Part shown: positions 1 through 43,130 of the stretch, piece after piece
Position numbering within the stretch: the first letter of the stretch is position 1
Layout of the letters: the number at the start of each line of letters is the position of its first letter
DNA from: Anaerolineae bacterium
GTDB lineage: Bacteria > Chloroflexota > Anaerolineae > B4-G1 > SLSP01
DNA length: 64,000 bases
Assembly: GCA_035415725.1 (NCBI GenBank)
Contig: DAOOGN010000002.1
Coordinates: 42,137 to 106,136 of the forward strand
Direction of reading: 5' to 3'
Position numbers and translations under genes: made by a program
Notes under the pieces: generated by a model
The model's database searches: none
What the model was told of the DNA's origin: nothing
What the model saw: the letters and a program-made list of their open reading frames with translations, nothing else

Positions 1-3000
1 GGCATCTGCTGGCAACGGGTCATCGGCGTTGCCGGATGCCGGGAAAGTTTCCGGCGGCGTCAAAGGTTTGAGATGGACTTCCTGGAAGCGTTTGCTTTCA
101 TCAGCGATTCTGTCGTAGAACATATTCATCGTGTCGGTATCTTGTTGCTCAAAATAATAATTGGTCGCCTTGTAGAAGGCTGTCATCCGCAAGACTGATT
201 GTCGCAACAACCAGGCATTATAGACCGCATGACGGCGACGCTCTTTCAAATGGGCTTCGCTACCTAAAACATCCGGCAAAGCCTGTCCCGTAGTGACATG
301 CATCATACCTTCTGCAGCGCGCAGATGCCAGGCAGCGCGTTCAAAAGCGGCGTCATCTTGCACACGCCGCACGGCTTCGCGCAATGCCTGGGTATAATCA
401 CGCCAGATTTGCGCTTCGCTAAAACTCGATGCCATAGATAGTACCTGGTTATAGGCTGTGATGGCGGTAGGATAGTCGCGGCTGAGCAGCGAATCCCACC
501 CCTGATTCATTGCATGACGCAAGTCAGGCAATAGAGCTTCAACGGTTTCAAACCGCTCCCTGAGGTTGAGCAAATCCACATCCGCCGGCGCGATCTTGAA
601 GCCTTGCGTGAACAGCCCCGGCAATGCGCTCAACCGCCAGGCATCTAACCCGGCCTGAATTTGCTGCCGTATCTTGACCAGGGCGGCTTCCTGTTCTTCA
701 CGGATTTGTTGCTGCAAAGTGCGGATGTCGTCGCGAGGGTCTAAACGCAACGCCAGGTCACACAATTCCAATCCGTGTGTAAATTCGCCAGCCCTGCGCT
801 CTACTTCAGCATGCGTCTTCAACCGATCTTGTAAATCTTTGATAGCGCTCTGCACGCGCGGGTAGTCGGGCGCCTCGCCGCGCACTCTTAAGATCCGCGT
901 GACAGCGACTGCCCATTGTTTCGCGCCGATCTCTGTGTGTAGCTCGCGCAGATCGTCATGAACACGATCTAACAACGTACGCAGCGCACGGATACGTTCC
1001 GCCAAATCATCCAGCCGCTTATCCGTGCGCGGCGCGGCAATCCTGATCGCTTTCTCCAGGGCGGTTGTGGCGCCGGCGGGATCATACGCGACCAGCGCTT
1101 TCTCCGTGTCGTCGAGAGCGATATCCAGCTTGGCATTTTGTAACCTCGCGCGCAGGTCAGCGATACGCCCCTGGCGATCCGCCTCCGGCTTGATAATCTG
1201 GGCCGCATCCGCCAGCGCGGAGTGTACGCCCTGTTCGTCGAGGCGTTGCAGCGCTGTTTCAGCTTTTTGTAATTGCGCGTTGAACGCCGCGGTCTGCTCG
1301 CCGGGCAAGCCGGCTGCCCAATCCCGGGTGTCTTGATCCAACTGTGGCACCTGCCTGAGAATGTCAGCGCACTCCAACGCCTGGACATACTTAAGTTCTT
1401 TGATGGCGACTTCCATCGTCATTCTGAGGTCGTCTCTGACCCGCAGACACTGTTCGGTAAAGGCCGTCTCATGGGTGATCTGGGGCGAAGCGTGTTCCAG
1501 CGTTTGCACCGCGCCCGCGTAGTCTTTGGGCGTCCCCAGGAAGGTGCCAATCTCTCGCTTCAGTTTATCCAACAACTGGCGACTTTCGGCCGCCTCCGCT
1601 TCTTGACGCTGCGCCTCCGCCGCCTCTTTTTCCTTTTGGATACGCAGTTGTTCGGCTTTCTCTTCCAGCGTGTGACGCAAGGTCTGCGCGCGCCCTAATT
1701 TGGATATGTCCGGCGGCAAAGCTTTGAAGACGTCCAACGTGCGGGACAGGAGGGAAGGACGTTGTTGATACGCTTCCCAGGCTTCCAACGCTTCCAACAA
1801 CAACTCCCACTGCCGAATCGGGGTATCCGGTTGATCGCCAGGGCACAACCGCTCGGCCTCTTCCAACGCTTTCTTGGCCTCTGCCAGATTGCCCTCCGGC
1901 GCTTGCAGGAGCGCGGCGGCCTGCGCCACACACTCCTGACTGGCCAGCCAGTTGCGCAGCCGATCGTAATCCCGGCTCACCAGCGGCGTGATCCAACCGG
2001 CGGTTTCGGCCTGAGTCAATTTCGCGCGCGCGGCAACGGTGTCCGGCGGGGTCTGATTGAGGAAGTCCGTCACTTCAGCCACCACGCGCTCGCGCAACCG
2101 TTGATAGCAGCGTTCCATATCCTTGTCTGGCGCCGGCTCAAAGTTAGCATCCAACTCTAAAACCCGGCGATACTCCTGTAAAGCCAGGTCCCAGGCTTCA
2201 TTGTTTTGATGAACTTCTGCGCGAGAGAGGGCGCTGATGATTTCCCGTTGGCGTTCATAGGCGGTCTTGAGCAATAGCGAGACGCCGGCGCCGCGCAACT
2301 CAATTTCGGCGTCGCGGAAACGCTTGTTCCCGGCCAGGTCGCGGGCGCGTTTCATCGCGTCTTGGGTGCGCTCAAAGGTGTCCAACGCATTCCGCACCCA
2401 CGTCGCTAATTCCCGCGCCGGGCCATCGTTTTCGTAGCCCTTGACCTGGAAGACTTCTTTGACAGCGCTCTCGAGCCGCTCCAGGTCAATCCGGCCCGGC
2501 GATTTTTTGGCGATATACCCGGCGTCCTCAAGCTGACTCTGCAAAGCGCGCGCGGCGGCCATTTTTTGGTTATAGTCCTGTTCCAGCCGGGCGCGGATAG
2601 AACCCTGGTGGGCTTCGTGAATCTCGGCCGCCAGGGATGCGGCATCCAACGTAATGTCAAACTCCACCTGCACGCCCAGTGCCTCGGCTTCTTCCTGGAC
2701 GGCTTTGACGATATCCAACGCGGCCTGCGGCGTGCCGCGCATCCCCTCTCGCCGCCAACTCTCGAAGCGTTCGCGCGCTTCTTCCAGCCGCAAGCGCAGG
2801 CGGCGTGTGCGTGTTTCGCGCAGCAGGTCTTCAAATTGCCGCACCCAATGGCTCTCCGGCGGCGGATCGAGGATCAGGAAAGGTTTCAATTGCGCCTCAA
2901 GATCGCGCAACTGTTCCTGTTCCAATCGTTTTTGCAACTGTCCCCGCGCGGTTTGCGCCTGTTTTTCCGCCCAGCGGTTGACAATCAGGTTTTGCAGCGT

Positions 3001-6000
3001 TTGGAGTTCATCCAATAGTTCCGGCGCAGCAGTGCGCCCGGTGGCCTGTTTGCAACGATTCCACGCCTCGGCATATTCGCCGTCGCGGTAAAGTTCCTGA
3101 ATTGGATGCACTACGCGCGTCCACTGTTCTTTCTCCAGTTCATCCACCAATTGTTGCGTCTTGTTGAACTTTTCTGGATCAACATTCTGGCGCGAAAGGT
3201 CAGTCAATAGTTCGCGCGCTTCTTTAAATCGTTCCTGCTTAGCCAAAGCCTCTACCTGAAGGAAAGTCTTGTCCGCATTGATCACCGCCTCCAGTTGCCG
3301 CTTGAGCAGACGCGCTTCAGGATCATCTGGGCGTTTCTCAAGCACAGTTTCCACCAGTTGCAGTGCTTCTTTGTATTTGCCAGTCTGCTGCGCCGTGCGG
3401 GCTTTCTCCAGCATTTCCTGTGTGATGCGTTGCTCGCGGATTTGCGTCTGTAACGCCAGGGCTTCTTTGGACGCCGGGTCGCTTTCCAGAATCTTCTGCA
3501 CGATATCCTGCGCTTCTTTGAATTGCCCATTGGCTAACCACTGTTGGGCTTCGGCCAGGGCGCGCTGCATTCCCAGCGTGCTCTCGCGCGCCTCCTCAAT
3601 GCGTTGACGCAGGTAGCCGGCCTCCTCGGCGATGCTCTCGGCATAGCGGTTGTTTTCGGCAAACCGCTCCAGATCGGTCAGATCCAGCAGGGCGTTATCG
3701 GCCTGCCGCTCTTCATTCCACCAGCGCTGCGCGCTTTGCAGTTTGGCGCCCGCGCGCGCGGCGCGCAACAAGTCCCCGGCTTCCGTCGCGCCCAGGCGAA
3801 CGGCCTTTTCAAATAACATGCGCGCTTCAGCGTACTTTTCAGCATCCAGGGCGGCCTGCCCCTCTTTCAGGGCCGCGTCGCGTTCCTGCTGCCCGGCGGC
3901 CAACTTCTCCAGTTCATCCCGGAGCATCTCCAGATACGGGCGTTTGTGACCTTCACGCAGAGTCTTCAGGGTCTCATTGACAGCTCGCAATGCGCCGGCG
4001 TAATCCTGTTCTTGCCGGCAGACCTCAATTTGTTCTTCCCAGACGGCGCCGGCCGCCCAGTCCTCGCGCTGCTGGCGCACGTCGCTCAGAACCTGGAAGT
4101 AGCGATTGCGCTCGTCCACGTCCAACACTTGCAGGTTGATTTCCTTTTGAAGTTTGTCCAGTCGGTTAAGGTAATCGCTCAACTGCTCCACCGTCGTCGC
4201 CAGGTGGCGTCCTGTTTCAATCTGGCTCATCACGTCGTGCAAGGTTTTGCGGGTGGCCTCGACGCGCGCGTTGGCGATTTGCTCGTGCAGCTTCTGCACC
4301 TCGGCATCCAGGTCAGGCAGTTCCTTCAAGGCCGGCAGTGTTTCCAGCGCTTTCTCGGCGGCGTCCCATTCGTTATTTAGATAAGCCTGGCGCGCTTTCT
4401 CAATCTCGGGGCGCGCCTTTTCATCCAAGGCTTGGAGTTTCTCTGCCTTTTCCTGAAATTGTGTAATGGCTTCCCGTATTTCCTGTACCGAGGGTTGACC
4501 CTCTAAAAGTGTAGGAAATTCATGATCGATCTGGTTATAAAATTCTTGCTCGATATCTTGAAGGTTATGCAATGCCGCTTGAAATTCACCGGCGTTCAGA
4601 GCATTTTGAGCGCGCTGCACGCGCTTGTCGGCCGCTTCATTGGCCCGGTTAATCAGCGCTTCAGTACAGTCTGTTAACTGTTGAATGGCCTCCGCATCTC
4701 TAGGATGTCCCTTGATATATTCGGTAGCCGCTCGATAGGCATCGATGAGCTGGCCTAATTGTGTCGCCGATGCTATCACGCCCCTGAGGGCATTATCGTG
4801 CGCCAGGCGGATCCATTGATCCACAAAGAATTGCGCGCGTCCGGCGGCCCAACTTTCCTGACGCAAATTGCCCAACACTCCAAGCCGATCTTGCGCGGTC
4901 TGCCAGTGGTCCGCTTGCCCTAGCGCCAATCCATCATCGCGATCCCCCATCTGAGTCAATTGGTTGAGGATTTCGCGTACTTGTTGCGGCAGCGCTACAT
5001 CCGGTTCCAAGAGTGTATTGAGACCCCGGCGCCAGGTCCGCATCGCATCCATCGGGCTGCTGGCCTGTTGCTCTTCAGCTTCGCGTTCTATCGCGCGCAG
5101 CTTTTCTTCCAGCATACGGCGCTGGCGAATTTCTGCGTAGAGTTTGGCCGTTTCGGTATCGCTCGGATCGAGTTCGCGCACCAGACGCAGCTTCTCCTCC
5201 GCCTCGGTGAGGTCGCCGGATTGGATGGCGGTCTGGGCTGCGAGTTTGGTGCTGTTGATCTTTTCGCGCGCCTTTTCCTCCAACTGCGCGCGGACAGCCT
5301 CCAGTGTGGGATCACTGCCGCGCATTTTTATGACTTCTTGAATCTTGAGCAGGCCGTCAGAGGCTACGAGATTTCGCGCCGCGTCGGCCGCTGCTGTCGC
5401 CCGCTCGTCCAGGTCCTTGAGTTGTTTTTGTAGTGTGCTCAACTCGGCGGGCAATAGCCCGCCCGCATCAGTGGCCTGGGTTTCGACCTCTTCTAATCGC
5501 TTGCGCGCCGGCTCCACGTGCCGGAGCGCGGCGTCGTCCAAAGCGTCGGCAATTTCTACCGGCGTCTCGCCGTCCGCCGCTGCGGCGTAAGCGACCTGTG
5601 CCTGTGACAGCGCGGCACCAGCGGCGCTGCGTGCGGCCTCCAATTCTCGCGCCAGCGCTTCCCATTCGTGCAATTGGCGGCGCGCGCCGGACGGCGCCGA
5701 GTCCCCCATCGCCTCCACGGCCTGTTTCAACGTGACTACGGCCGCCCCCCATTCGCCTTTGTCGCGGCTCTGTTCGGCGCGGGTGTGCGCTGTTTCGTAG
5801 TCCTGCCAGGCGTCGCGCGCGGCGCGCAGCGTTGTGTGCAATGCTTCCAGACCAGCGCACAGGTCGGGCCAGTCAGCCACCAGGTGCAACGCGGATTCCA
5901 AATCTTGCAATAGTGGATCGAGCGCACCGGCCTGGAGGGTGGCCTGTTGTTGTAACGCCGCCCAATCCTTTTTCACTTGCGCAAGCGTGGCTTCCGCCTT

Positions 6001-7584
6001 AGGTTTAGCGCCACACATTCCCACACAAGCTTTAGCCGCATTGTTATCGGGGTTTAGCCCCAGGGCCTCGTTGCCATAGCCGGCCGCTTCCGTGAGCCGC
6101 CCCGCATTGAAAGCGCTTTCGCAGGCCTGCACCAACTGGCTTTCCAGCGCCTCGGTCACCCCGGGGCCGGCAGCCCAGACTTCGTGCGCTTCCTGATAAG
6201 CGCGAACCGCCACGAAAACATCGTTCGCAGCTTTGCCCCGGCCCATCAACGCATTAAATTTTTCAATTTTGGCCTCGACGCGGCGCAAGCCTTCGGCGGC
6301 CTGGCGTTGATGTTCTGGCAGAAGCGCACCGAGGGTCTCCTCAAACAGCGCTCTGGCCTTGCTCAGGTCGCTGCACTCCCACAGGCTCTCGGCGTTGCGC
6401 AGGCGGCCGGCTTCCTCCTCAATGCGCCGGATTTCTGCGGTGACGGTGTTGTGCATCGTCTCCACAACCGCGCCGACGGCGGTGTAATCGCGCCCCTCGG
6501 ATTTGGCGTGCGTTAGACGTTGCAACGCCAATTTCAGGGATTGCGCGGCTTCGTCGCGGCGGCCCTCATCCCAATCCAGACGTGCTTGCTTCTGTTGTGC
6601 GGTGATGGCAACCAGGTCCACACTTTCGTCGCGCAGGCCGGTGGCGTCCAGGTGGGCGGGGTAGATTGTTAGCACCTCCTCGAAAACCTTCTGCGCGCCT
6701 TCAAACTGGCGCTTCGCCTGATCAAAGGAGCGCTGTTGGTTTTGCTGTCGCCCGGCTTCCAACAATTGCCGCCCGTAAGTCATGCCGGCCTGGAGGTAAA
6801 GTTGTTGCCACAACGGCACGTCCTGATACCGGCTGCGCTGCTGTTCCAACTGCGCCAGCGCGTCGGTCCAGCGACTCTCGGCGATGGCTTTCTCAATTGC
6901 CGCCAGGTCGCGTTTCTGGCTGTCCAGATAGCTGCGAGCCTGGCGCAACCATCCCTGCGCCTGAGCATACAAGGGCGAGGCCTGGGGGATGTTTTCCAGC
7001 AGCATGATGCCCTGTTCAAACTCCCGCGCGCGAAGGGCTTCTTCGGCTTTGCGCAGCAGGGCTTGATGGTCGCCCTGGCTCAGCGCATTCGTGCGGACGT
7101 TTTCCAGTTCACTTCTCAGCGGTTGGTAGACCGGCTCCTGGGGTAACTGTCGTAACATATCTGCGGCGGCGTTGGCGGCGGCTTCCCAATCGCCGACGGC
7201 GTTGACCTTGCGGATTTCAGCCTGGGCGTTGTGCACCCGCGTCTGCCAGTTGTGCAGATCAAGGGCCTGATTGCGCTTGTGTTCCAAATCTGTGTGGAAC
7301 TTCAGAATCCGGGGCGAGGCCACCGCGAAGTCGGTGATGGCGATGTACTCGTCCGCCGCGTTGCGATAGTCGCCCTGCGCCATCAGCGCGTCGGCCTCGG
7401 TCAGGCGTTCTTTGATTTCGGCCTCTTTTTCAACCGCGCGCTGCGCCAGACGCAGCCCCTGATCGGCTTTGGGATTGTTGGCATCCAGGTCGCGCGCCTG
7501 TTGATAGAGCCGCTGCGCCTTTTCCCAGTCGCCTTCGGTCATCGCTTGTTCGGCTTGTTGTAAGAGATAGGGTAACTGAGACAT
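1..7584 (-). CDS. Giant alpha-helical TPR-like repeat protein, 5' portion only (>=2528 codons in window; continues past position 1). Not in ORF track because no stop in window.
   Basis: Reverse-complement of 7582-7584 is ATG preceded by AGGAGG (rc of cctcct at ~7589-7594), 4 nt spacer; translation begins MSQLPYLLQQAEQAMTEGDWEKAQRLYQQARDLD... Frame checked by hand at ~2960-3000 (..LQNLIVNRWAEKQ..) and ~470-501 (..GWDSLLSRDYP..), both consistent with one continuous minus-strand frame; all other-frame ORFs in 1-7600 are short (<160 aa). Sequence is all-alpha, Ala/Leu/Glu/Arg/Gln-rich with recurring TPR-like A..A..Y..A spacing. Confidence 0.7.
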   Translation of the reverse strand, partial: MSQLPYLLQQAEQAMTEGDWEKAQRLYQQARDLDANNPKADQGLRLAQRAVEKEAEIKERLTEADALMAQGDYRNAADEYIAITDFAVASPRILKFHTDLEHKRNQALDLHNWQTRVHNAQAEIRKVNAVGDWEAAANAAADMLRQLPQEPVYQPLRSELENVRTNALSQGDHQALLRKAEEALRAREFEQGIMLLENIPQASPLYAQAQGWLRQARSYLDSQKRDLAAIEKAIAESRWTDALAQLEQQRSRYQDVPLWQQLYLQAGMTYGRQLLEAGRQQNQQRSFDQAKRQFEGAQKVFEEVLTIYPAHLDATGLRDESVDLVAITAQQKQARLDWDEGRRDEAAQSLKLALQRLTHAKSEGRDYTAVGAVVETMHNTVTAEIRRIEEEAGRLRNAESLWECSDLSKARALFEETLGALLPEHQRQAAEGLRRVEAKIEKFNALMGRGKAANDVFVAVRAYQEAHEVWAAGPGVTEALESQLVQACESAFNAGRLTEAAGYGNEALGLNPDNNAAKACVGMCGAKPKAEATLAQVKKDWAALQQQATLQAGALDPLLQDLESALHLVADWPDLCAGLEALHTTLRAARDAWQDYETAHTRAEQSRDKGEWGAAVVTLKQAVEAMGDSAPSGARRQLHEWEALARELEAARSAAGAALSQAQVAYAAAADGETPVEIADALDDAALRHVEPARKRLEEVETQATDAGGLLPAELSTLQKQLKDLDERATAAADAARNLVASDGLLKIQEVIKMRGSDPTLEAVRAQLEEKAREKINSTKLAAQTAIQSGDLTEAEEKLRLVRELDPSDTETAKLYAEIRQRRMLEEKLRAIEREAEEQQASSPMDAMRTWRRGLNTLLEPDVALPQQVREILNQLTQMGDRDDGLALGQADHWQTAQDRLGVLGNLRQESWAAGRAQFFVDQWIRLAHDNALRGVIASATQLGQLIDAYRAATEYIKGHPRDAEAIQQLTDCTEALINRANEAADKRVQRAQNALNAGEFQAALHNLQDIEQEFYNQIDHEFPTLLEGQPSVQEIREAITQFQEKAEKLQALDEKARPEIEKARQAYLNNEWDAAEKALETLPALKELPDLDAEVQKLHEQIANARVEATRKTLHDVMSQIETGRHLATTVEQLSDYLNRLDKLQKEINLQVLDVDERNRYFQVLSDVRQQREDWAAGAVWEEQIEVCRQEQDYAGALRAVNETLKTLREGHKRPYLEMLRDELEKLAAGQQERDAALKEGQAALDAEKYAEARMLFEKAVRLGATEAGDLLRAARAGAKLQSAQRWWNEERQADNALLDLTDLERFAENNRYAESIAEEAGYLRQRIEEARESTLGMQRALAEAQQWLANGQFKEAQDIVQKILESDPASKEALALQTQIREQRITQEMLEKARTAQQTGKYKEALQLVETVLEKRPDDPEARLLKRQLEAVINADKTFLQVEALAKQERFKEARELLTDLSRQNVDPEKFNKTQQLVDELEKEQWTRVVHPIQELYRDGEYAEAWNRCKQATGRTAAPELLDELQTLQNLIVNRWAEKQAQTARGQLQKRLEQEQLRDLEAQLKPFLILDPPPESHWVRQFEDLLRETRTRRLRLRLEEARERFESWRREGMRGTPQAALDIVKAVQEEAEALGVQVEFDITLDAASLAAEIHEAHQGSIRARLEQDYNQKMAAARALQSQLEDAGYIAKKSPGRIDLERLESAVKEVFQVKGYENDGPARELATWVRNALDTFERTQDAMKRARDLAGNKRFRDAEIELRGAGVSLLLKTAYERQREIISALSRAEVHQNNEAWDLALQEYRRVLELDANFEPAPDKDMERCYQRLRERVVAEVTDFLNQTPPDTVAARAKLTQAETAGWITPLVSRDYDRLRNWLASQECVAQAAALLQAPEGNLAEAKKALEEAERLCPGDQPDTPIRQWELLLEALEAWEAYQQRPSLLSRTLDVFKALPPDISKLGRAQTLRHTLEEKAEQLRIQKEKEAAEAQRQEAEAAESRQLLDKLKREIGTFLGTPKDYAGAVQTLEHASPQITHETAFTEQCLRVRDDLRMTMEVAIKELKYVQALECADILRQVPQLDQDTRDWAAGLPGEQTAAFNAQLQKAETALQRLDEQGVHSALADAAQIIKPEADRQGRIADLRARLQNAKLDIALDDTEKALVAYDPAGATTALEKAIRIAAPRTDKRLDDLAERIRALRTLLDRVHDDLRELHTEIGAKQWAVAVTRILRVRGEAPDYPRVQSAIKDLQDRLKTHAEVERRAGEFTHGLELCDLALRLDPRDDIRTLQQQIREEQEAALVKIRQQIQAGLDAWRLSALPGLFTQGFKIAPADVDLLNLRERFETVEALLPDLRHAMNQGWDSLLSRDYPTAITAYNQVLSMASSFSEAQIWRDYTQALREAVRRVQDDAAFERAAWHLRAAEGMMHVTTGQALPDVLGSEAHLKERRRHAVYNAWLLRQSVLRMTAFYKATNYYFEQQDTDTMNMFYDRIADESKRFQEVHLKPLTPPETFPASGNADDPLPADA

Positions 7585-7629
7585 GCATCCTCCTGAAACG
7601 TGATCTGCGTTCGTAATTCGTTGTTCGCC

Positions 7630-9558: not shown

Positions 9559-9584
9559 TGTTTCCTCCTGATGAAATTAAAATT

Positions 9585-10883: not shown

Positions 10884-10888
10884 AATCG

Positions 10889-15523: not shown

Positions 15524-15594
15524 AGAAGCTCCTCAAAAGGCAGTTGCAAGAAAAATTTTAGCTCTACGTTCTCTGTACCTTTGCAGTGCCATGT

Positions 15595-16515
15595 TCATGG
15601 TAAATAGCGCAGCAAGGCAACACTGTTATCCTGCGTGGCTGCCGCCACGCAGCGGCCACACACCAGGGAAAGGTTATTGACCGTCACGCGCAAGGCTGTG
15701 GAGGCCAGTACAGCGCCGCTCGCGGCGTCCACGATAGCGACGCGGCCTTCGTAGCCGCCACCCACCGCAAGCAGCGGCGCGGCGGCGTCTGCAGCCAACG
15801 TCGCCGGGCTATCAAGGTTTTGCTTCCAGAGCACTTTGCCGAGGTCGGCGCTATAGGCGATCAGGCGCACTGCGTCGTATTCGTCCGGCGTGAGAACCGC
15901 GACGCCGGCGTTGTCGGCCAGCGCAGCGACGGCCATCACGGCGCCATCACACTCGCGGCGGTGCAGCGCCATGCCACTGCCGGCGTCCAGCGCGAGCAGC
16001 CAGTTGGTGCCGCTGCTTGCGCTGCCGACATAAAGTATATTGCCGTCTGCTGTCAGACTGACTGACCAGTTGCACCCGTGCACCGCCTCGCCACTGTCTT
16101 GCTGCCGCCACACCACGTTGCCTTCCAGATCAAGCATAGTCAAGGCAAAGGTGTAGTGCCCCAACACAATCCGTTCCGCCGCAAAATCCAGCGTATGGAT
16201 GCCGTTAACACTATGATGCAGATGACGGGGATCGAGACTGAAACGGCCCGCGGATGGTTCCAGGTCGCAGACAAGGAGGTCGCCCAGGCGCGTCGCCAGG
16301 GACAGGCGCGTGAAGTCGAGGGAGGTGCGAATTTGATGCACTGGCATCTCGGCGTCGGCGGCAGGATACGCACCCAGACGATGGCCACTCAGGTTGAAGA
16401 CGGCAGCACCAACTTCACTTCCTACAGCCACATACTGCCCATCACCGGACTGCGCGATGCTGGAGACCGGGCGGTAGACCTGGATCCATCTGAAGATTTC
16501 GAGGCGAGCGGGCAT
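15595..16515 (-). CDS. Beta-propeller repeat protein (WD40/PQQ-like)
   Basis: 306 aa with repeated short beta-strand blocks (VAVGSEVGAAVF, ILYVGSASSG, LLAVGGGYEGRVAIVD) typical of propeller blades; start 3 nt after stop of tubulin-like gene (tight coupling). Confidence 0.6.
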   Translation of the reverse strand: MPARLEIFRWIQVYRPVSSIAQSGDGQYVAVGSEVGAAVFNLSGHRLGAYPAADAEMPVHQIRTSLDFTRLSLATRLGDLLVCDLEPSAGRFSLDPRHLHHSVNGIHTLDFAAERIVLGHYTFALTMLDLEGNVVWRQQDSGEAVHGCNWSVSLTADGNILYVGSASSGTNWLLALDAGSGMALHRRECDGAVMAVAALADNAGVAVLTPDEYDAVRLIAYSADLGKVLWKQNLDSPATLAADAAAPLLAVGGGYEGRVAIVDAASGAVLASTALRVTVNNLSLVCGRCVAAATQDNSVALLRYLP

Positions 16516-16518
16516 GGC

Positions 16519-19500
16519 TCAGTTGCCTGCCTTTCGGGCAATTTCGGTCAACCGACCAATCTCGGCATTGAGAATGAGGTGCATTATGGTCCCCATATCG
16601 TACACGCGCTGCGTGGCAGTCTGCTTTTTGAATTCGGCCACGTGCCCGTCGCGGAACGCATTAAGTTTCTCAATGCGACGTTTGGCATTATGCGCCTGGC
16701 GTCTGGCGTCATCCGGTTCAGTCTGGGCATCCGGGCCGAGCGCATCCGTCACATTGCGCAACGCCTCGCCGAGAGCGCGCAAGGTCAGAGAGAATGGATT
16801 TTGGATGTGCCCCAGGTCCACACCCTGCCGGGTCAAGGTGTCCACAAGAATCATGATCATCGAATCCGGCACGCCGGGTTTCTGAGTGGCTTTGAGGACA
16901 AAGTTTTGCAAAGCATTCAAGTAACGCCGCGCGGTCTGGCCTTCAGGCGGTACGACGTCAAAGTTTTTGTCCAGTTGACGTAGGCGGCGGCTCTCGCTCA
17001 ACGGCATCAACCGTCCGCCGTGATTGCGTAGATCAAGGTAGACTTCGGTAGTTTCGACGCTGGTTTCGGCATCGTAGTACAGGCCCTCTTTGATCAAGCC
17101 ATACGCGCAGGCCAGGGTGAAGATCTTGAGTTTGTCCTCATCGCCCATCGCGATAACCAGTTCGGGCGACAGAGGACGCATGCGGTTCTCCGGCTCGCCG
17201 AGCTTCTCAATCATGTTTTCGTAGTCGGTCACAATTTGTTCTTCGGGGAAGAGATGAATGCTTTCTTTACCACGATCCAGCTTGACGCGATAATCGTTCT
17301 CGCAGGCGATGAACTGATCCACCGCGCGTAACTTGACACCGCGCGCTACCTCGACAACGGTGCAGGCAACGCGGCTTTCAGCCGCCGCATTCACCGTGCG
17401 TCCCTGGTCGCCCAGGATGGCCCGTGCACGATCCAGGAATTCCCGCGCTTCCTCTGTAGTAGCACCGGCAAGGTTGAATGAGATGTAGCGCTCGTGCCCC
17501 ATGGATTTGCCATTGGCTGAAGGGTTATAGCGTAGAAACGGCTCGTTGATTTGTCCCACGACATTGACGAAACTGGAATAGGATTTGAACTCCACAGCAA
17601 TGCGGTCGGCGACGGAAATGTTGTCACGTACCACCTGGAACAGTTCCTTGGAACCGGCAAAGAATTTGCGGGCGATGTCCTCCGCCCCTTTGGCTTCCTG
17701 CGCCCACATGCTGACCATTTTGTAATCCAGAGGCGCAGTGTCATCTTTGCGCTCCCACGTCAGCCCCTTGACGCCGCGCACCTCGCCCAATACCTGCGCC
17801 GCCACAAATTCGACGTACTCCGGCTGCCGGTACAACTGGTCTTCAAACTCCGGGCTGGTGAGATAGCGGCGCACCTTGATCTGGCGCTTTTCGCGGCGGT
17901 TGTTCTCATGGATGCGCGACCAGTCCTGGAGAACTTTGCTGGTTGCCTGCAAAGTGCCCTGCCAGGCTTCCAACTCTTGCGCAGCCTGATCCACCACACT
18001 CAAATTGCCGCTCTGATCCATCTCACCGGCGCCGAGGGCATCCAACACATCCAGCACTACGCGGTAAATACGACGGTGCAGCAGTAGGTTCATTTTCTCA
18101 CTAAACCAAGCGGTGTAGGAATCCTGCGCCTGACGCGGCTTGGACTTCTTGGGAAACAACCCACCGGACTCCTCTTTGGTATCCTGCATCCAGGCGATGG
18201 CATCACGCAGACCCTCACTGGCCTGGCGTAAGCGGCTCTCGGTCTCGGAACGACGATATTCCTCCTCAAGAATTGTTTTGAAGCTGACCAGACGGTCCTT
18301 CAGCGCGGCGACAAGGGCGCGCGCCATGGGCAGTTGCGCTTCGACCAATATCTTGGAGCGCGGGTCGCGGCGATTGAGGATATCCAGTAATTCCACGTCC
18401 AAAGCTTCGGAGAAACGCAAGCGCAGCGCATCGCGGTAACGCGCCAGAATGATATCCCACTGACCGCCCTCGCGGGCTTCTTCGTCATCGGGATTGTATT
18501 GCGGGCCCAGGCAATCATCCATGAATTGGTCACTGAAGTTGATGAGGCGGGTATACCCGTCATCGAAGCTTTCCTGTTTATATTCACCGTCTTTGGTGGC
18601 GATCAGACCGCCATAGAGATAATCCATCCACTGTTGAATGGTCTGGTAGTCCTCGGCAAAGGCGCCTTCGGAGAGCGCGATCATGTTGAACAGCCCGGAC
18701 CAGCTCATATCGGGCATTTCCGGGTCTATCTTTTTGGTGGCCACAATGGCTTTCTGCACCACGCCGGGATTGACACGCCCCCTCACGTTCGTATCGGCAA
18801 ACACTCGCTCCACCTCTTTGGCGGCAGCCAGTACAACCTGCGCTTGCGCCTTTTTGTCGGGGATGGGCAAGTACTGCCGGCGTAGCAGTTCTTGCAGGAA
18901 ACGGTAGGAGAAACTCTCAATGATGTCGTCCACAGGCAAGATGTAGGTATAGACGTTAAAACTGCTGTATTGCCAGCCTTCTTCTTTATCATAGTGCAAG
19001 CCGGCATTGGAACGCATACTGGCGAGCGCATCGCCCAGAGTTTGGTCAATATGCGCCATCACAAAGTCGGAAATGATGGGGAAGACGCCGCGCTTCGGAT
19101 CGCCGCTCAAATTCATGTCGCCGGCGGCGCTGGGACAGGTGGTATCCACCAGGTAGATGTGGTCTAGCGGCTGATTCGTGCTCCATGTAATTGAACGTAG
19201 ATCATCGCCGTAGCGGATCATATAGGGCAGCATGTTGCTGTGAGTGCGCACGAAGCGATCCAATTCACGCAACGCAGCGTAGGTGTTGGGCTTGAGATTT
19301 GTCGGATCGTTCATCATGGTGGTGTAGGAACTGAAAGCGTCGGGCAGCACAATGACGGCTGAGACATCCAGGGATTGCCATTTAGAATTGGACTGCTTGG
19401 CATGGCCGACCAAGTTAGCAACGTCCACCATGAAGCCGGAACCGGTGCCGCCAGCTACCGAGCCAATGATGAAAATCTGGCGTTTGCTTTGCTCAATTTT

Positions 19501-19992
19501 GATCGCATCCACTGCTTTTTCTTCTTCTGAATCGTCGCCATACATTTGACCGATGGCGCTGACAATCGAAGAGTAAATAGGATTATCCCAACGCTGAAAC
19601 AGGGCTACGCGCCCTACCGGCCGGCGCTGCTGCGCGCCACCGCGGATATCCCTTTCAGCAGGTCCGAGAATACGCGACAGTTTCTCTTTTTCCAACCATT
19701 GCATATAAGACAGGCTGCGCCCGGCGGCTATATCGGCAAAAATGGTATCCATCGTGACGCCGGGTTTGCTGATCACATGTCTAAATTCCGGATTGCGTCC
19801 CCGCTCATCAGTTTGCCCCGAAAGTTGTGTGCTGGCAAACATGTCCTCATTCCGCAAGTCATCGGTATCCAAGGACAACAACACCACATTCTCCGGTACC
19901 TGGCCGTAGGTTTCTTCCAGCCGCTCTTTGAGAATAGTCAGAGCAGCCTTTCCAGAACCGCCAACTCCAATCGCTAAGACTCGTTTTGGCAT
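16519..19992 (-). CDS. Tubulin/FtsZ-superfamily GTPase domain (N-terminal ~350 aa) fused to ~800-aa alpha-helical extension; 1157 aa
   Basis: T1-like loop AIGVGGSGKAAL at N-terminus (GK followed by A, so not a Walker A). PROSITE tubulin signature [SAG]-G-G-T-G-[SA]-G matched as AGGTGSG (residues 180-186; encoded on minus strand at 19435-19455: rc = gct ggc ggc acc ggt tcc ggc). Downstream T5/T7-like hydrophobic/NxD-like segments (VIVLPD; GDMNLSGDP). Confidence 0.7.
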   Translation of the reverse strand: MPKRVLAIGVGGSGKAALTILKERLEETYGQVPENVVLLSLDTDDLRNEDMFASTQLSGQTDERGRNPEFRHVISKPGVTMDTIFADIAAGRSLSYMQWLEKEKLSRILGPAERDIRGGAQQRRPVGRVALFQRWDNPIYSSIVSAIGQMYGDDSEEEKAVDAIKIEQSKRQIFIIGSVAGGTGSGFMVDVANLVGHAKQSNSKWQSLDVSAVIVLPDAFSSYTTMMNDPTNLKPNTYAALRELDRFVRTHSNMLPYMIRYGDDLRSITWSTNQPLDHIYLVDTTCPSAAGDMNLSGDPKRGVFPIISDFVMAHIDQTLGDALASMRSNAGLHYDKEEGWQYSSFNVYTYILPVDDIIESFSYRFLQELLRRQYLPIPDKKAQAQVVLAAAKEVERVFADTNVRGRVNPGVVQKAIVATKKIDPEMPDMSWSGLFNMIALSEGAFAEDYQTIQQWMDYLYGGLIATKDGEYKQESFDDGYTRLINFSDQFMDDCLGPQYNPDDEEAREGGQWDIILARYRDALRLRFSEALDVELLDILNRRDPRSKILVEAQLPMARALVAALKDRLVSFKTILEEEYRRSETESRLRQASEGLRDAIAWMQDTKEESGGLFPKKSKPRQAQDSYTAWFSEKMNLLLHRRIYRVVLDVLDALGAGEMDQSGNLSVVDQAAQELEAWQGTLQATSKVLQDWSRIHENNRREKRQIKVRRYLTSPEFEDQLYRQPEYVEFVAAQVLGEVRGVKGLTWERKDDTAPLDYKMVSMWAQEAKGAEDIARKFFAGSKELFQVVRDNISVADRIAVEFKSYSSFVNVVGQINEPFLRYNPSANGKSMGHERYISFNLAGATTEEAREFLDRARAILGDQGRTVNAAAESRVACTVVEVARGVKLRAVDQFIACENDYRVKLDRGKESIHLFPEEQIVTDYENMIEKLGEPENRMRPLSPELVIAMGDEDKLKIFTLACAYGLIKEGLYYDAETSVETTEVYLDLRNHGGRLMPLSESRRLRQLDKNFDVVPPEGQTARRYLNALQNFVLKATQKPGVPDSMIMILVDTLTRQGVDLGHIQNPFSLTLRALGEALRNVTDALGPDAQTEPDDARRQAHNAKRRIEKLNAFRDGHVAEFKKQTATQRVYDMGTIMHLILNAEIGRLTEIARKAGN

Positions 19993-20027
19993 CTCTCATA
20001 CTCCTTTTCTAAGCCGAATAAGCTGAA

Positions 20028-22367
20028 TTAACATTTAAGCCTAGTTTTATCGAGGCAAACCCGCAATTTAATATCGCTAATACTGGTAGTTACATCTGTA
20101 ACGATATCCCGGAAGGTTGTCTTCCGTATCCCTTTTTCAGCATCGAAGATGTTAACAGTATTGCCTTCGCGGATAACGTAAAATTCCACCGGTTTTAATC
20201 CTTTAATGTAAATGTCCACCTTCTTACGATTGCCGCCTATAATGATTTTGCGCCGGCGGTGTGACATTCCCAAGGTATAGGTAGACATAGGCCCCTTTGA
20301 TTCCTTGTCGGGACCGCAGACCAGCACATATCCATTCGGCGGCGGCGAGATATGTACGATAAACCAGGGAATGCCATACAAAATGATAAAAACTAGTAAC
20401 CCCAATCCCAAAATTCCACCTGCCAGGTACGGCCACCAGGGGCAGCCTTGCAATTGTGGAATACCTGGCCGGTCAGGGCAGTTGTCTGCACCGCAATCAT
20501 TGAGGCCATCACCATCGCGGTCAGAGCAAGGTGTGGGGGTAGGCGGAAGGGGCGTCGGGGTAGGTGGAAGGGGCGTGGACGTCGGGGTGCAGGTAGGCGC
20601 TACAATCAGTACCGGCATATCACGCTCTACCGGCGGCATGGGGCCGGTCTTGAGTTGTGCAGTCAGGCGCAGACGTAACGTAGTGTCGGTCTGTGTGGAA
20701 CATGGCGTTTCCGCCGATAAAGCCGTGCAGAGCGCGGAAAGATCACTGTTGAATATGCCAGGTGAGGTGCTGCTCAGTTGGACTTCCTGACCACCACCGA
20801 ATGCGCGCAGTTGGATGGTTTTGGCAACGGCCAGGTCGTAATCAGCGATGGTCACCGTCAATTCTGGGCGGGTGCCGCCACATACCAAGGGAGAGGGCAC
20901 AATGTCGGCGATATACGGCGCGCGCCCCACATCCACCATCAAGCGGGCGATGGCAATAGGAATACGTGTGGCCTCGGCGTCCTCTTCCAGTGCGGAGCCG
21001 GCATTCAGGATAAAGATGAAACGGCCAGGGGCCTCCATAATCGCCGGGTACGCGCTGGCGAAGTCAAAGCGAACTTCGTACTCACCGCTACTGTCGGGCG
21101 CGAGGTTTTCGGGAATCCGTAGGGAAGTTTGCAGGCCATCGGGTGTGATGACATCACCCCATATCGGTTGCGGTTCACTGCCGTAACAATCGCTGGAAAG
21201 TGTGAATCGTATGGCAAACTCGCGATTGGGGGTTTGACGCTCGGTTGCCAGATAGATGTTAGTGATCTCGGTAAGGCTCACTTCCGGCGCTTCAAAGTGG
21301 ATCCCGTAGGCGCCGCGGCGATCCAGGTGCACCTTCACCGGTTTGTCCGATTCAATTGTCCACATATCGTTCTTTAGATCATCAGTCAGCCGTGCCGCGC
21401 CGATGGAGATGACTTCTACGGGATTGTCAGTGCCACGGAAGCGCTTGACACCAGGCGTTGTGTCCAGATCAACAGTGTTTGATTTGGGGTCCTTAACGAT
21501 AATGTTCCCTTTAGCTTCGCCAGTTCCATGTTTGACTGTAATGACAATTTCCTGTACGCACTTACTAACGAAGAAGGGGTGAGGTGTACCAGCGGGGACA
21601 TCAGTGCCTTCTTCGTCAGGAATTGTGTTTTGCAATTGGGCGATAATGCGGTTGTAGGTGCTATCAATCTGATTGCGGTCGGTGATGCGATAGGTGAAAA
21701 CGTGATCATAGCGCGTCTGCATCTGCTCCCAAAAGCGGACGTACTTTTCATAATCTGCGTCAGTGGGGTCCTGTAATAACATTATGAAAAATGGAATATC
21801 GGGATTGGCACTCACCAGCCGCTCTATTTCGGCGTCGCTTTGTCCGGCTTCGGGATAAGGGCGGCCATCCGTCATCAGCACCACCGCCGGGAGATTGGTG
21901 GCGCGGCGTGCAGGTGAGGTGCGCAATTCCTGGTAGGCCAATTTGATGGCCTCGATCATATTTGTTCCCAGTTCTGGGGCTGGGTCAGCGACTAGCCGTG
22001 CTATCGCATCGCGCGCGCCGCTGACCGGTTGCAACGGCGCTACCAAAGTTGCGGTGCGGCCCAGGCTAATCACCCCGGCCTGATATTCTAACTCATTGAC
22101 CTCGGCAAATCCCAGGCGTGCGACAAACAGATTGACGCCGGCAATGCGCAGAAAGTCAGGGTCATTGCCCCAGACTTCGCAACCGGCTACAATTTTGTCG
22201 CGTGGGAACATACTGCAAGAGTTGTCGACAACAAGCATCATATCAATAGGTTTGCGGTCGAGATCTGACTGCGCGGCGGCCGGGTAGAAAGGCACAAGGA
22301 GACATACTATCAGAACGATATACAGCAAGGTTTTTATGAAACTGGATGATAGTTTAAGGATATACAT
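20028..22367 (-). CDS. Secreted/membrane-anchored von Willebrand factor A (VWA) domain protein with PT linker, TSP3-like repeat, C-terminal TM helix and ~130-aa cytoplasmic tail
   Basis: Signal-like N-terminus (LLYIVLIVCLLVPFYPAAA); MIDAS motif DxSxS in MLVVDNSCSM, plus LMTDGRP; PTPTPLPPTPTPLPPTPTP linker; CSDRDGDGLNDCGADNCPD repeat; TM GGILGLGLLVFIILYGIPWFIV; basic cytoplasmic tail. Confidence 0.8.
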   Translation of the reverse strand: MYILKLSSSFIKTLLYIVLIVCLLVPFYPAAAQSDLDRKPIDMMLVVDNSCSMFPRDKIVAGCEVWGNDPDFLRIAGVNLFVARLGFAEVNELEYQAGVISLGRTATLVAPLQPVSGARDAIARLVADPAPELGTNMIEAIKLAYQELRTSPARRATNLPAVVLMTDGRPYPEAGQSDAEIERLVSANPDIPFFIMLLQDPTDADYEKYVRFWEQMQTRYDHVFTYRITDRNQIDSTYNRIIAQLQNTIPDEEGTDVPAGTPHPFFVSKCVQEIVITVKHGTGEAKGNIIVKDPKSNTVDLDTTPGVKRFRGTDNPVEVISIGAARLTDDLKNDMWTIESDKPVKVHLDRRGAYGIHFEAPEVSLTEITNIYLATERQTPNREFAIRFTLSSDCYGSEPQPIWGDVITPDGLQTSLRIPENLAPDSSGEYEVRFDFASAYPAIMEAPGRFIFILNAGSALEEDAEATRIPIAIARLMVDVGRAPYIADIVPSPLVCGGTRPELTVTIADYDLAVAKTIQLRAFGGGQEVQLSSTSPGIFNSDLSALCTALSAETPCSTQTDTTLRLRLTAQLKTGPMPPVERDMPVLIVAPTCTPTSTPLPPTPTPLPPTPTPCSDRDGDGLNDCGADNCPDRPGIPQLQGCPWWPYLAGGILGLGLLVFIILYGIPWFIVHISPPPNGYVLVCGPDKESKGPMSTYTLGMSHRRRKIIIGGNRKKVDIYIKGLKPVEFYVIREGNTVNIFDAEKGIRKTTFRDIVTDVTTSISDIKLRVCLDKTRLKC

Positions 22368-22391
22368 ATCAGGACCTCCCTCGGGTTCAGA

Positions 22392-22874
22392 TTACATGGA
22401 GTGTTCCAGCCTGCGCCCAATATCTTGTGCAAATTCCTCCGCGGCTTGTTCGGGAGGACGATATACCATGACGATATCGTTATTCTCTCTGCCTAACACT
22501 TGGGCCACAGCCGTGCGTGCCATGTCGAGTCCTTGAGGACAAACCGCAAGGACGCCGCCTTGCTCTATGACCTGATGTATAAGCTGATGGACACGTGGAT
22601 CGGCTTCCAGGGCGGACAGGTTGCGTTCACTCCCCGGCAAAATGATCATGGGCACCGTTACAATATCGATGATGCGCTCCAAGGCGGTCAGGCTGAAATC
22701 TGGCTTGATAAGAATGCCGTGCGCGCTATTGATGGTCCCGCCGATAACACCGACACTTTTTACACAAATCCCCATACGACGCAGGACACTGAGCAGCACT
22801 ATCGTTTCAATCTCGTTGAACCCATCCGCCAGCATGACAAGCACACACTGCGTTGAGACATCTTTAGTATTCAA
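22392..22874 (-). CDS. DJ-1/PfpI family (class I glutamine amidotransferase-like) protein; first gene of the minus-strand array
   Basis: VLVMLADGFNEIE N-terminal strand-helix, nucleophile-elbow-like LAVCPQG at the position of AICxGP in DJ-1/PfpI; 160 aa. Confidence 0.6.
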   Translation of the reverse strand: MNTKDVSTQCVLVMLADGFNEIETIVLLSVLRRMGICVKSVGVIGGTINSAHGILIKPDFSLTALERIIDIVTVPMIILPGSERNLSALEADPRVHQLIHQVIEQGGVLAVCPQGLDMARTAVAQVLGRENNDIVMVYRPPEQAAEEFAQDIGRRLEHSM

Positions 22875-23175
22875 TGTCCGCTCCTTTCTTCATTTTTACT
22901 CGACATCGACCATGGTTGTCCATCTCCGGTTCCGGTAGCCCGCCAAGACTTGACTTCTCATCATCGCTTCAGCAATTTTGAAACGGCTCGAATTGCTTAT
23001 GCAAGCTTTATGATCATTTCTAGTAAGTTTGACCGACAAAATAAAGTTTGATGGGGAGTAAATCCTGTCCTTTATTGTAGCGTTTGAATGTCTGTTTAGA
23101 TCTTAAAATAATCTAGAAGTTTCGTCGCCTGGATGGGTAAATCTGTAAAAAACTGTAGATTTCTGGGCGGCGACT

Positions 23176-23204
23176 TTTGTAGTCCCTGGCTTCGGTGTTA
23201 TAAT
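23176..23204 (+). promoter_or_regulatory. Candidate sigma70-type promoter with extended -10 (TGtTATAAT at 23196-23204; -35-like TTTGTA at 23176-23181, 17-nt spacer) in AT-rich divergent region upstream of the NB-ARC gene
   Basis: Read directly in sequence: cgacTTTTGTAgtccctggcttcggTGtTATAATctcc; lies ~128 nt upstream of ATG 23332. The 22875-23331 region is conspicuously AT-rich relative to the flanking coding DNA. Confidence 0.4.
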
Positions 23205-23331
23205 CTCCATAGGAAATAGAAAGCTGGTGAAGGTCCACTTATGCGTTTCAATCCGCGACGTCCGGCTTTGGGGGTCTATCATGGTCCCAGCAGTATCATC
23301 CTTAACCTTCGCCAGGTGGGGCATACATTGA

Positions 23332-25954: not shown

Positions 25955-25955
25955 T

Positions 25956-25992
25956 GAAGCCCCTCCCCCAGACAGGGGTGGGGGCTTCTTGT
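25956..25992 (+). terminator. GC-rich hairpin (14-bp stem, 5-nt loop) followed by TTGTGG directly after TPR gene stop; candidate intrinsic terminator
   Basis: gaagcccctccccc-agaca-ggggtgggggcttc then ttgtgg; one G-U and one mismatch in stem; U-tract weak. Confidence 0.35.
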
Positions 25993-26043
25993 GGCATTGG
26001 GGTCAAGCGAGCATTTCTGGCGCTGATGATAACTACACTCTTG

Positions 26044-26193: not shown

Positions 26194-26445
26194 CTGCGTC
26201 TCCTTTCTCTGAGAGAAAATGAGCAAGACGCGGGTCCCCCCAGTCGCTGACTGGCTTCGAAGACGTCCGGCTGTGAATAAACTTGGTGAGCGCGCTTTCA
26301 TTTATCACTATAGCCGAAATCAGGTATACGTGCTATAGTAGCATGTTGAAAACGCCCTGATTCTGTACTGAAAATGGCTGAAAGTTTTGCTCTATAAATG
26401 AAGTCACGTTGACGAACTTGTATTCCTTGTAAGGTGGAGTCTCTT

Positions 26446-27840: not shown

Positions 27841-27852
27841 ACGGGGTATTTT

Positions 27853-32133: not shown

Positions 32134-32142
32134 GGTCGCCCC

Positions 32143-43124: not shown

Positions 43125-43130
43125 ACAGTG

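Follow-up and report, generated by a model that had tools for sequence, protein, structure and literature searches.

A conserved FtsZl1-vWA operon of ten or more genes in Anaerolineae, with a receptor-like vWA protein and candidate links to bacterial conflict

We analysed a 64,000-nucleotide stretch of DNA from an Anaerolineae bacterium (metagenome-assembled genome, GenBank assembly GCA_035415725.1, contig DAOOGN010000002.1, positions 42,137 to 106,136), referred to here as the window, which begins with a minus-strand array of genes built around FtsZl1, a GTPase of the tubulin/FtsZ superfamily. It is well supported that the array represents the FtsZl1-vWA system in an Anaerolineae form, a conserved operon whose ten or more genes encode a machine spanning the cytoplasmic membrane. 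New here are the predicted FHA fold in the tail of the vWA protein, the swappable ectodomains and the effector fusions in orthologues of the GTPase. On balance, it is probable that this machine is a trans-envelope, phosphorylation-gated, GTPase-scaffolded conflict system.

FtsZl1 was defined by Makarova and Koonin (2010, Biol Direct 5:33; PMC2875224) and later became the Pfam family Tubulin_2. In the vWA/FtsZl1 operons that these authors described, kinases, a diverged GTPase and OmpA-like proteins also occur, and a role in membrane remodelling was proposed; TPR proteins and a PQQ-propeller-kinase fusion near FtsZl1 are found in their supplement, and one Chloroflexus member (Cagg_1316) was listed, with no member from Anaerolineae or Caldilineae. 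Subsequently, Kaur, Burroughs, Iyer and Aravind (2020, eLife 9:e52696; PMC7159879) placed tubulin-vWA neighbourhoods in the 'GAP1-N2 GTPase-centric' conflict systems, the tubulin theme being reported only from Firmicutes and Actinobacteria. An earlier note on this DNA, made from the letters alone, had stated that no system described to date was known to have this composition, which was too strong: an operon of vWA, FtsZl1 and Ser/Thr kinase genes is that of Makarova and Koonin, and the label 'undescribed' is also countered by Kaur et al., in whose account tubulin-vWA neighbourhoods already stand among the conflict systems of multicellular bacteria.

Eight co-directional open reading frames (ORFs), named g1 to g8 (Table 1), were called on the minus strand of window positions 1-22874, where the earlier note had counted nine genes; the intergenic gaps that it listed are all exact (24, 35, 3, 71, 5, 26 and 45 nt in the order g1 to g8, the 35-nt gap separating g2 from the downstream g3), and seven gaps make eight genes. 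On a contig from the European Nucleotide Archive (L001) that is identical to the window, g8 is complete at 2699 amino acids (aa), and two further co-directional genes follow it, namely g9, for a 286-aa TPR membrane protein (gap 54), and g10, for a Metallophos protein (gap 3), which brings the array to ten genes or more. Searching metagenome contigs for exact matches to a 49-mer and to a 41-mer of L001 did not extend it past g10. The AT-rich divergent region that had been noticed upstream of the array was indeed seen, opposite an NB-ARC gene, with a GC content below that of the adjacent coding windows (roughly 48-57%), and is presumed to be the shared control region of g1 and the NB-ARC gene. 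A hydropathy scan located g2, g6, g7 and g9 in the membrane or across it, and g3, g4, g5, g8 and g10 to the cytoplasm, bearing out the mixture of cytoplasmic and exported parts proposed earlier. Most domain calls of the same note also recurred in the profile searches: DJ-1 (g1; Pfam DJ-1_PfpI, 2.4e-12), VWA with a metal ion-dependent adhesion site (MIDAS; g2, Pfam VWA/VWA_2), tubulin-like GTPase (g3; PF13809, 2.5e-47), beta-propeller (g4; PQQ_2, 1.9e-11), Kelch (g7; models up to 8e-21) and a TPR giant exceeding 2500 aa (g8; TPR_2, 3.6e-11, and other TPR models). Its TSP3 repeats were recovered as a motif-level likeness in g6, whereas the Pfam TSP_3 model reached only E=0.016, below the Pfam threshold. 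In the NCBIfam scan of the array proteins, nothing scored above the curated cut-offs.

Homologues of the core genes were found together in related genomes. The order vWA, FtsZl1, propeller, kinase giant, a membrane protein of ~350-450 aa and, usually, the TPR giant is seen in the loci that are long enough to show it, which come from Anaerolineae and Caldilineales and have FtsZl1 proteins 42-91% identical to g3. The exception is L017, in which no kinase giant was detected; the membrane protein is 956 aa long in L004, and its slot is not resolved in L017-L019. The propeller directly follows FtsZl1 in the gene calls of L001, L004, L005 and L006, and tblastn placed it 0-170 nt downstream of FtsZl1 in L007-L009, L011-L014 and L016-L018. 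The earlier note had held that scattered homologues would speak against a single system; the vWA-FtsZl1-propeller-kinase giant core is instead syntenic across that whole range of FtsZl1 identity. The single multi-component system that it proposed thus stands for the co-inherited core, whereas the DJ-1-like, TSP3-like and Kelch genes are accessories that vary with the lineage; they were seen only in the closest relatives, and the more distant loci have no Kelch gene. However, at an FtsZl1 identity of only about 28%, the operons again include DJ-1-like and Metallophos genes, and a DJ-1 gene opens the operon in the distant locus L088. Distant Chloroflexota FtsZl1 loci share the vocabulary of the array: vWA, kinase, FHA, PP2C or Metallophos, TPR giants, DJ-1 in first position and a divergent STAND gene. 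Comparison with the two closest loci, L007 and L009 (Table 1), shows that divergence along the array is a mosaic, in which the exported parts are swapped or fast-diverging and the cytoplasmic parts are 79-92% conserved.

Table 1. Features of the array and of the divergent neighbouring operon; positions are those of the window, and identities are those to the two closest loci, L007 and L009.
Feature	Position	Strand	Length	Description	Identity to L007/L009
g8	1-7584	-	2528 aa within window	Giant TPR/alpha-helical cytoplasmic protein; frame open at window start	87-92%
g7	7630-9558	-	642 aa	Exported Kelch beta-propeller + DUF11 protein	53-55%
g6	9585-10883	-	432 aa	Single-pass membrane protein, TSP type-3-like ectodomain	
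g5	10889-15523	-	1544 aa	Cytoplasmic giant, PknB-like kinase domain at N-terminus	80-87%
g4	15595-16515	-	306 aa	Cytoplasmic beta-propeller (PQQ_2/WD40-like)	79-80%
g3	16519-19992	-	1157 aa	FtsZl1 / Tubulin_2 family GTPase	90-91%
g2	20028-22367	-	779 aa	Receptor-like vWA membrane protein	79-83%
g1	22392-22874	-	160 aa	Short DJ-1/PfpI-fold protein, opens array; TTG start uncertain	46-48%
g1/NB-ARC intergenic region	22875-23331	.	457 bp	Divergent intergenic region, GC 38-45%	
n1	23332-24795	+		HTH-like N-terminus + NB-ARC (6.8e-11); Sigma70_r4 only E=0.062	47-60% (n1-n4)
n2	24740-25954	+		TPR_12 (2.8e-29)	47-60% (n1-n4)
n3	26434-27840	+		AAA_22 ATPase + C-terminal OmpR-type winged helix (Trans_reg_C)	47-60% (n1-n4)
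n4	27853-30777	+		TCAD9 kinase-like protein (2.9e-37)	47-60% (n1-n4)
n5	30778-32133	+		Multi-TM (transmembrane) protein	
n6	32143-34005	+		CHAT caspase-like protease (4e-19), C-terminal multi-TM region	

The Tubulin_2 match of g3 covers residues 6-370 (the gathering score of the family is 27), and its T1 ('GVGGSG') and T4 ('AGGTGSG') loops are invariant in 14 relatives, the T3-like motif ('GGAQQRRPVGR') being invariant as well. In the PDB, FtsZ, CetZ and TubZ were its only sequence matches, confined to the T1 and T4 loops (E 0.06-0.9); a solved FtsZl1 structure was not found there. The protein falls within the ~1000-1200 aa size of FtsZl1, a family whose long C-terminal region outside the FtsZ part comprises a coiled coil and an alpha-helical domain; in g3 the C-terminal 780 aa are kept across the clade. 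There are 112 clusters of g3 orthologues at 40-100% identity, nearly all of them unnamed metagenomic proteins; among 1.84e9 cluster representatives, 1568 relatives were found at E<=1e-3 and 52 at E<=1e-30, with about ten full-length ones (50%-identity clusters). Phage and plasmid collections gave no sign that this FtsZl1 clade is carried by either, matches being limited to a single marginal one in phages and to four distant FtsZl1 genes from megaplasmids. Several unusual architectures were encountered among the relatives. In an Anaerolineaceae metagenome-assembled genome (L087:10001-15644), TPR giants, PP2C, FHA, FHA-FHA-Pkinase and a vWA protein are encoded upstream of a tandem pair of Tubulin_2 genes (934 and 945 aa), a variant that recalls the two-tubulin Firmicutes type of Kaur et al. 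(PMC7159879). A natural fusion of vWA and Tubulin_2 (1360 aa) is found at L089:10001-14083, and P0116 is a natural fusion of Tubulin_2 with an EF-Tu-type GTPase domain (796 aa). In L005 (1394-4089) the FtsZl1 operon adjoins FtsK/SpoIIIE, actin-like ParM (ALP_N) and HTH_17 genes, which suggests that it lies on an integrative or plasmid-like element.

Set against the system of Makarova and Koonin, the array is alike in its FtsZl1 of about 1100 aa with an N-terminal FtsZ-like GTPase domain, in the MIDAS-intact, signal/TM-bearing vWA gene immediately upstream of it, and in the Ser/Thr kinase within the operon (g5 here; frequent but not universal there). It differs in that their frequent diverged P-loop GTPase and OmpA-like protein were not found in the ten array proteins by Pfam and NCBIfam, and in what it adds, i.e., the stand-alone beta-propeller, a kinase with a non-catalytic C-terminus of 1250 aa, the 2699-aa TPR giant, the Metallophos and DJ-1-like genes, and the variable Kelch and TSP3-like ectodomain proteins. 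Nor does their account mention an FHA-fold tail on the vWA protein.

A pointer to the function of the array comes from g3 orthologues that carry effector-type modules. Four close orthologues, 54-75% identical over the full length, have C-terminal fusions: P0013, P0039 and P0054 (59-75% identity) to nSTAND1/AAA_22 modules, and P0095 (54%) to SIR2_2. The fusion is a single continuous ORF in both loci that were re-called (L090 and L091). In four of the four extended variants examined, the gene after FtsZl1 is one for SIR2 (L090: vWA, FtsZl1::SIR2, SIR2), AAA_35-SIR2-caspase (L091: FtsZl1::STAND, AAA_35-SIR2-caspase), CHAT (L092: NACHT-FGE-sulfatase, HSP70, FtsZl1, CHAT) or AAA_35-CHAT (L093: EAD7-bearing STAND, FtsZl1::AAA_35, AAA_35-CHAT, Trypco2). 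These context domains are a signature of the NTP-dependent conflict systems of multicellular bacteria.

The protein encoded immediately upstream of g3, namely g2, looks like a receptor. Across 66 orthologues, the first D and the last S of the DxSxS motif of its MIDAS (DxSxS..T..D), as well as the T and the final D, are invariant, while the middle S is kept in at least 90%. An AlphaFold model built on the 66 orthologues (predicted local distance difference test score 91) runs from a signal or anchor segment through the MIDAS vWA head, a beta-sandwich (Ig-like) stalk, a disordered Pro/Thr linker with a TSP3-like Cys motif and a TM helix to a compact, beta-rich tail, and the hydropathy scan likewise gave two hydrophobic segments. 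By structure comparison, the modelled ectodomain resembles the pilus-tip adhesin PitA, integrin I-domains and ANTXR2, and the tail is predicted to adopt an 11-stranded beta-sandwich FHA fold. Judging from the model, g2 would thus combine a MIDAS head, an Ig-like stalk, one TM helix and an FHA-fold cytoplasmic tail. Within g2 the vWA head is best conserved (60%) and the tail least (39%), the latter reading 'TIGG(D/N)RKK...LKPVEF'. Phospho-dependent docking by this tail may be proposed from the modelled fold; the tail might just as well dock independently of phosphorylation, as the corresponding modules of YscD, PrgH and EssC do. It is to be noted that the equivalent vWA protein at the distant locus L087 has a faint Pfam FHA match and is encoded beside FHA, FHA-kinase and PP2C genes.

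By the structural matches, integrin and ANTXR receptors, too, hold a MIDAS vWA head up on Ig-like domains, cross the membrane once by a TM helix and recruit scaffolds with a short tail. This is an architectural analogy only, at 10-17% identity, and here the tail has the predicted FHA fold and the partner is tubulin-like rather than actin-linked.

A kinase and a phosphoesterase are encoded with this protein. As a single sequence g5 has no Pfam match, but the profile of its orthologues matched PknB in the PDB with E=1.6e-19, and a Hanks-type (PknB-like) Ser/Thr kinase domain, divergent in its catalytic loop, occupies the first ~285 aa. Residues K47, E66, D165 and D193, which align to the HRD/DFG positions of PknB and are the beta3 Lys, the alphaC Glu, the catalytic-loop Asp and the DFG Asp, are invariant in seven orthologues; the orthologue in L005 matches PF00069, and the distant one in L089 keeps 'DMKIEN' in the loop. 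The label 'pseudokinase' given in the earlier note is therefore not established and was rejected as stated, since the four key catalytic residues are kept; activity itself cannot be read from the sequence. The remaining ~1250 aa are rich in Ala, Leu, Glu, Arg and Gln, and have no Pfam match. The g10 protein shows the DxH, GDxxDxG, GNHD and GHTH motifs of PPP/ApaH-like metallophosphoesterases, with a weak match to PrpA-type protein phosphatases. The nearest parallel in logic is found in Pseudomonas aeruginosa, where assembly of a type VI secretion system is gated by threonine phosphorylation through the kinase PpkA with a periplasmic vWA domain, Fha1 and the phosphatase PppA. There, too, an outside vWA, a Hanks-type kinase, an FHA domain and a phosphatase decide the assembly of an envelope-spanning machine. 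In the array, however, vWA, TM helix and FHA fold lie in one protein with the kinase separate, the phosphoesterase is Metallophos and not PP2C, and an FtsZl1/TPR complex would take the place of a contractile sheath; beyond the shared domains there is no sequence relationship.

The other membrane and exported proteins are the variable ones. In g6, a cytoplasmic N-terminus of ~45 aa is followed by a TM segment (45-63), a Pro/Thr linker (92-127) and a Cys/Asp-rich repeat ectodomain; as a single sequence it has no Pfam match above threshold, and a profile scan that included NCBIfam gave a TraB-like match (6e-8, residues 266-331). Its first ~60 residues, cytoplasmic and TM, are kept, and the cytoplasmic motif 'VPPEVxxLWxQLHAEA' recurs in L007, L009 and L011, whereas the ectodomain is unrelated in L007 and the same slot in L004 holds the 956-aa, FN3-like protein; the slot thus behaves as a variable-ectodomain cassette. 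In g7, a hydrophobic segment at 5-23 (signal or anchor) precedes the Kelch and DUF11 (2.8e-9) regions; compared with L007 and L009, an internal block at ~250-400 is 72-92% identical and both flanks 30-57%, so that the gene may be a recombination mosaic. In g9, a TPR part in the cytoplasm is connected through a TM helix and a Pro/Thr linker to an SH3b-like end. On the cytoplasmic side, g4 has no strong TM segment and g8 none; the N-terminal ~290-650 aa of g8 are 24-92% identical at the same relative position in L007, L009, L011 and L014, and in L017 and L018 a g8-like gene directly follows the propeller. Scores of g1 against the DJ-1/PfpI families of NCBIfam were all far under the cut-offs. The nucleophile Cys is present in g1 of the window, whereas five homologues upstream of FtsZl1 on the same strand have E, D, G, G and N; because this Cys is not conserved, a DJ-1 enzyme (glyoxalase or protease) is unlikely and the DJ-1-like proteins are probably non-enzymatic.

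Across the intergenic region, the plus strand carries six genes, n1 to n6 (Table 1). A STAND NTPase of NB-ARC/TPR type is split over n1 and n2, which lie in different frames with a 56-nt overlap; since L007, L009 and L014 show the same split (about 471 + 384 aa), it is probably not a sequencing frameshift. Homologues of n1/n2 lie divergently upstream of FtsZl1 operons in L007, L009, L014, L026, L031 and L038, and in three of these six loci FtsZl1 is only 26-29% identical; the pair is likely a sensor or regulator linked to the array. Further along, n3 is kept in L007 and L009 (58-60%) and also in L032, and n4 in L007 and L009. By adjacency, n4-n6 are a candidate effector module of the array. 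The GC content is 49-58% over g1-g3 and the whole divergent STAND/TCAD9/CHAT operon (window 17000-34000), and 58-66% in g5, g8 and the housekeeping genes past 34 kb, which start at 34156; the former segment may have been horizontally acquired or may be recombining within the island. In L004, a 60%-identity relative, a JetD (Wadjet) gene (1-1038) and a CHAT gene (3591-5357) lie within 10 kb upstream of the FtsZl1 operon. Two further minus-strand genes of the window were recorded: one at 50803-57543 for a 2246-aa surface protein (LTD, three DUF11, two Big_5, DUF5689, OB-fold, DUF7927), which is unrelated to the array, and one at 40428-43277 for a 949-aa fusion of a DHH/DHHA1 phosphoesterase, tandem CBS and a PolyA_pol nucleotidyltransferase of the CCA-adding type.

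From the computed parts, topology, linkage, FHA fold prediction, kinase residues and orthologue effector fusions, we infer the following working steps. Outside the membrane, g2 would present its vWA head on the Ig-like stalk, accompanied by the variable TSP3-like (g6), Kelch (g7) and SH3b-like (g9) proteins; inside, g3, g4, g5, g8 and g10 would be met by the FHA-fold tail of g2 and by the N-termini of g6 (short and conserved) and g9 (TPR). The ectodomains would sense the binding or loss of a ligand, as an extracellular or envelope cue, and the single-pass proteins would pass the signal to the cytoplasmic face, where the g5 kinase and the g10 phosphoesterase would set a phosphorylation threshold. 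Once it is exceeded, the TPR and propeller proteins would act as scaffolds on which FtsZl1, with GTP, builds a higher-order complex attached to the membrane. The output would most likely be of the conflict or immune type, such as growth arrest or death of an infected or damaged cell in the filament, and the executors would be SIR2 or CHAT/caspase proteins in the relatives and possibly the membrane-bound CHAT protein n6 here.

A conflict role is favoured because FtsZl1 is fused to SIR2 or STAND modules and followed by SIR2, caspase or CHAT genes in close orthologues, because the neighbours in the window are NB-ARC, TPR, AAA-wHTH, TCAD9 and CHAT genes, and because NB-ARC/TPR pairs recur divergently upstream of FtsZl1 operons. 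It is favoured also because divergence is mosaic, with conserved g2-g5 and g8 set against diverged g1 and g7 and the swapped g6 ectodomain, and because tubulin-vWA neighbourhoods were independently classed as conflict systems (PMC7159879). With the GAP1-N2 systems of that study, the array shares a tubulin-superfamily protein that is extended at its C-terminus (helical in those systems), an extracellular vWA on a membrane-bound protein, the kinase/phosphatase/vWA themes, extracellular SH3b-type domains and the bias to multicellular bacteria including Chloroflexi; a conflict role through the regulated assembly of cytoskeleton-like complexes was proposed there, and the close orthologue in L092, beside HSP70, NACHT-FGS and CHAT, shows the same vocabulary. 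Membership itself was rejected, since the defining DO-GTPase with N-terminal zinc ribbons was not detected in the array, nor were GAP1 and the FNIII-repeat protein; models of GAP1 and the DO-GTPase may lie outside Pfam, so that a very divergent copy might still be hidden in g5 or g8. The MoxR-vWA ternary system of the same authors was rejected as well, there being no AAA+/MoxR match in the array; in the divergent operon, the AAA_22 and NB-ARC ATPases belong to the STAND type rather than to MoxR.

A number of observations count against a phosphorylation-gated conflict system. The array itself has no effector domain, the CHAT operon is linked to it by adjacency only, and STAND and CHAT genes are abundant in Chloroflexota generally. 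The conflict-system option raised in the earlier note is supported by the SIR2, CHAT and STAND fusions and neighbours; PADLOC-DB v2 assigned the array proteins to no known defence system, giving only a weak match of g5 to the N-lobe of the PD-T4-6 kinase (9e-6). Regarding the gate, the canonical D-x-K-x-x-N loop is missing from g5, its clade having 'DFEPATKGDR', without the Lys and the Asn; an FHA domain in the g2 tail was not found by sequence, whether in Pfam at E<=10, with a profile of eight tails against the PDB, or by alignment with a true FHA protein in hhalign; and the tail shows no evident GR, SxxH or NG, the residues by which canonical FHA domains bind phosphothreonine. Regarding polymerisation, T6-H7 elements were not found in FtsZl1 by Makarova and Koonin (PMC2875224). 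Moreover, the conserved vWA head of g2 does not fit a diversifying antigen receptor, and no experimental work on FtsZl1 or tubulin-vWA defence was found in the literature.

Among the alternatives, the one that survives best, as a tentative but real possibility, is an apparatus joining cytoskeleton and envelope that would remodel membranes, make cells adhere to each other or shape the filament, and in which the hypothesis of Makarova and Koonin is joined to an integrin-like reading of g2. In such an apparatus, g2 would couple extracellular adhesion by the Kelch, TSP3-like and SH3b proteins to a tubulin-like polymer under the regulation of Ser/Thr phosphorylation. The likeness of g2 to the integrin I-domain, ANTXR2 and pilus-tip adhesins is consistent with this, as are the tubulin-superfamily GTPase at the centre, the four membrane or exported proteins with adhesion-type modules, the filamentous habit of the host class and the good conservation of the vWA head, expected for a structural ligand; membrane remodelling had, moreover, been argued by the original authors (PMC2875224). 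However, this account leaves the SIR2 and STAND fusions and the downstream SIR2, caspase and CHAT genes unexplained, and it fits poorly with a clade so patchy and rare, with accessory genes swapped like cassettes, and with a relative (L005) among genes typical of mobile elements.

It is also conceivable, if improbable, that the array is not one machine, i.e., that the unit consists of the vWA, FtsZl1, propeller, kinase giant and TPR giant, with the DJ-1-like, TSP3-like, Kelch and Metallophos genes as passengers. Orthologues of g1, g6 and g7 are indeed restricted to the closest relatives and are far more diverged there, and distant loci are without the Kelch gene. Promoter and terminator consensus scans over 7000-24000 did not exceed the shuffled expectation and are silent either way on a single transcript. 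Against passengers, no terminator-like site separates the array genes, which lie 3-71 nt apart, the slot after the kinase giant is always filled by a single-pass membrane protein whose N-terminal motif is common to L007, L009 and L011 despite unrelated ectodomains, and the DJ-1-like and Metallophos genes recur in the operons at about 28% FtsZl1 identity mentioned above. A trans-envelope transport or secretion device, with FHA-like domains as docking platforms as in the type III (YscD/PrgH) and type VII (EssC) secretion systems, is very improbable: the array has several envelope proteins, and transport was proposed for FtsZl1 neighbourhoods by the reviewer Jekely, but no ATPase, channel, secretin or translocase domain was found in the ten array genes by Pfam and NCBIfam.

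Returning to the conflict system, a bolder version of it can be formulated, which we regard as rather unlikely in its entirety. In this version, FtsZl1 would be a GTP-driven polymerising scaffold of bacterial immune signalling, the tubulin counterpart of the eukaryotic inflammasome or supramolecular organising centre (SMOC); an integrin-like vWA receptor would be the trigger, the FHA-fold tail with the kinase and the phosphoesterase would set the threshold, and TSP3-like, Kelch and FN3-like cassettes would confer specificity. If so, immune signals would pass from the outside to the inside across a bacterial membrane, and a tubulin homologue would serve a purpose other than a cytoskeletal one.

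Within the tubulin/FtsZ superfamily no branch is more divergent than FtsZl1, and sixteen years have passed since its prediction. The array and its relatives provide the fullest parts list so far for one FtsZl1 clade, in which a receptor-like vWA protein with an FHA-fold tail is joined by the kinase and TPR giants, the propeller, the phosphoesterase and the swappable ectodomain proteins, and the evidence from SIR2 and STAND fusions and from downstream CHAT or caspase genes makes the choice between 'membrane remodelling' and 'immune system' directly testable. Should the cytoskeletal account be true, the array would be an integrin-like link from adhesion to cytoskeleton in a bacterium; should the conflict account be true, a tubulin-family assembly module and a transmembrane receptor would join the immunity of multicellular bacteria.

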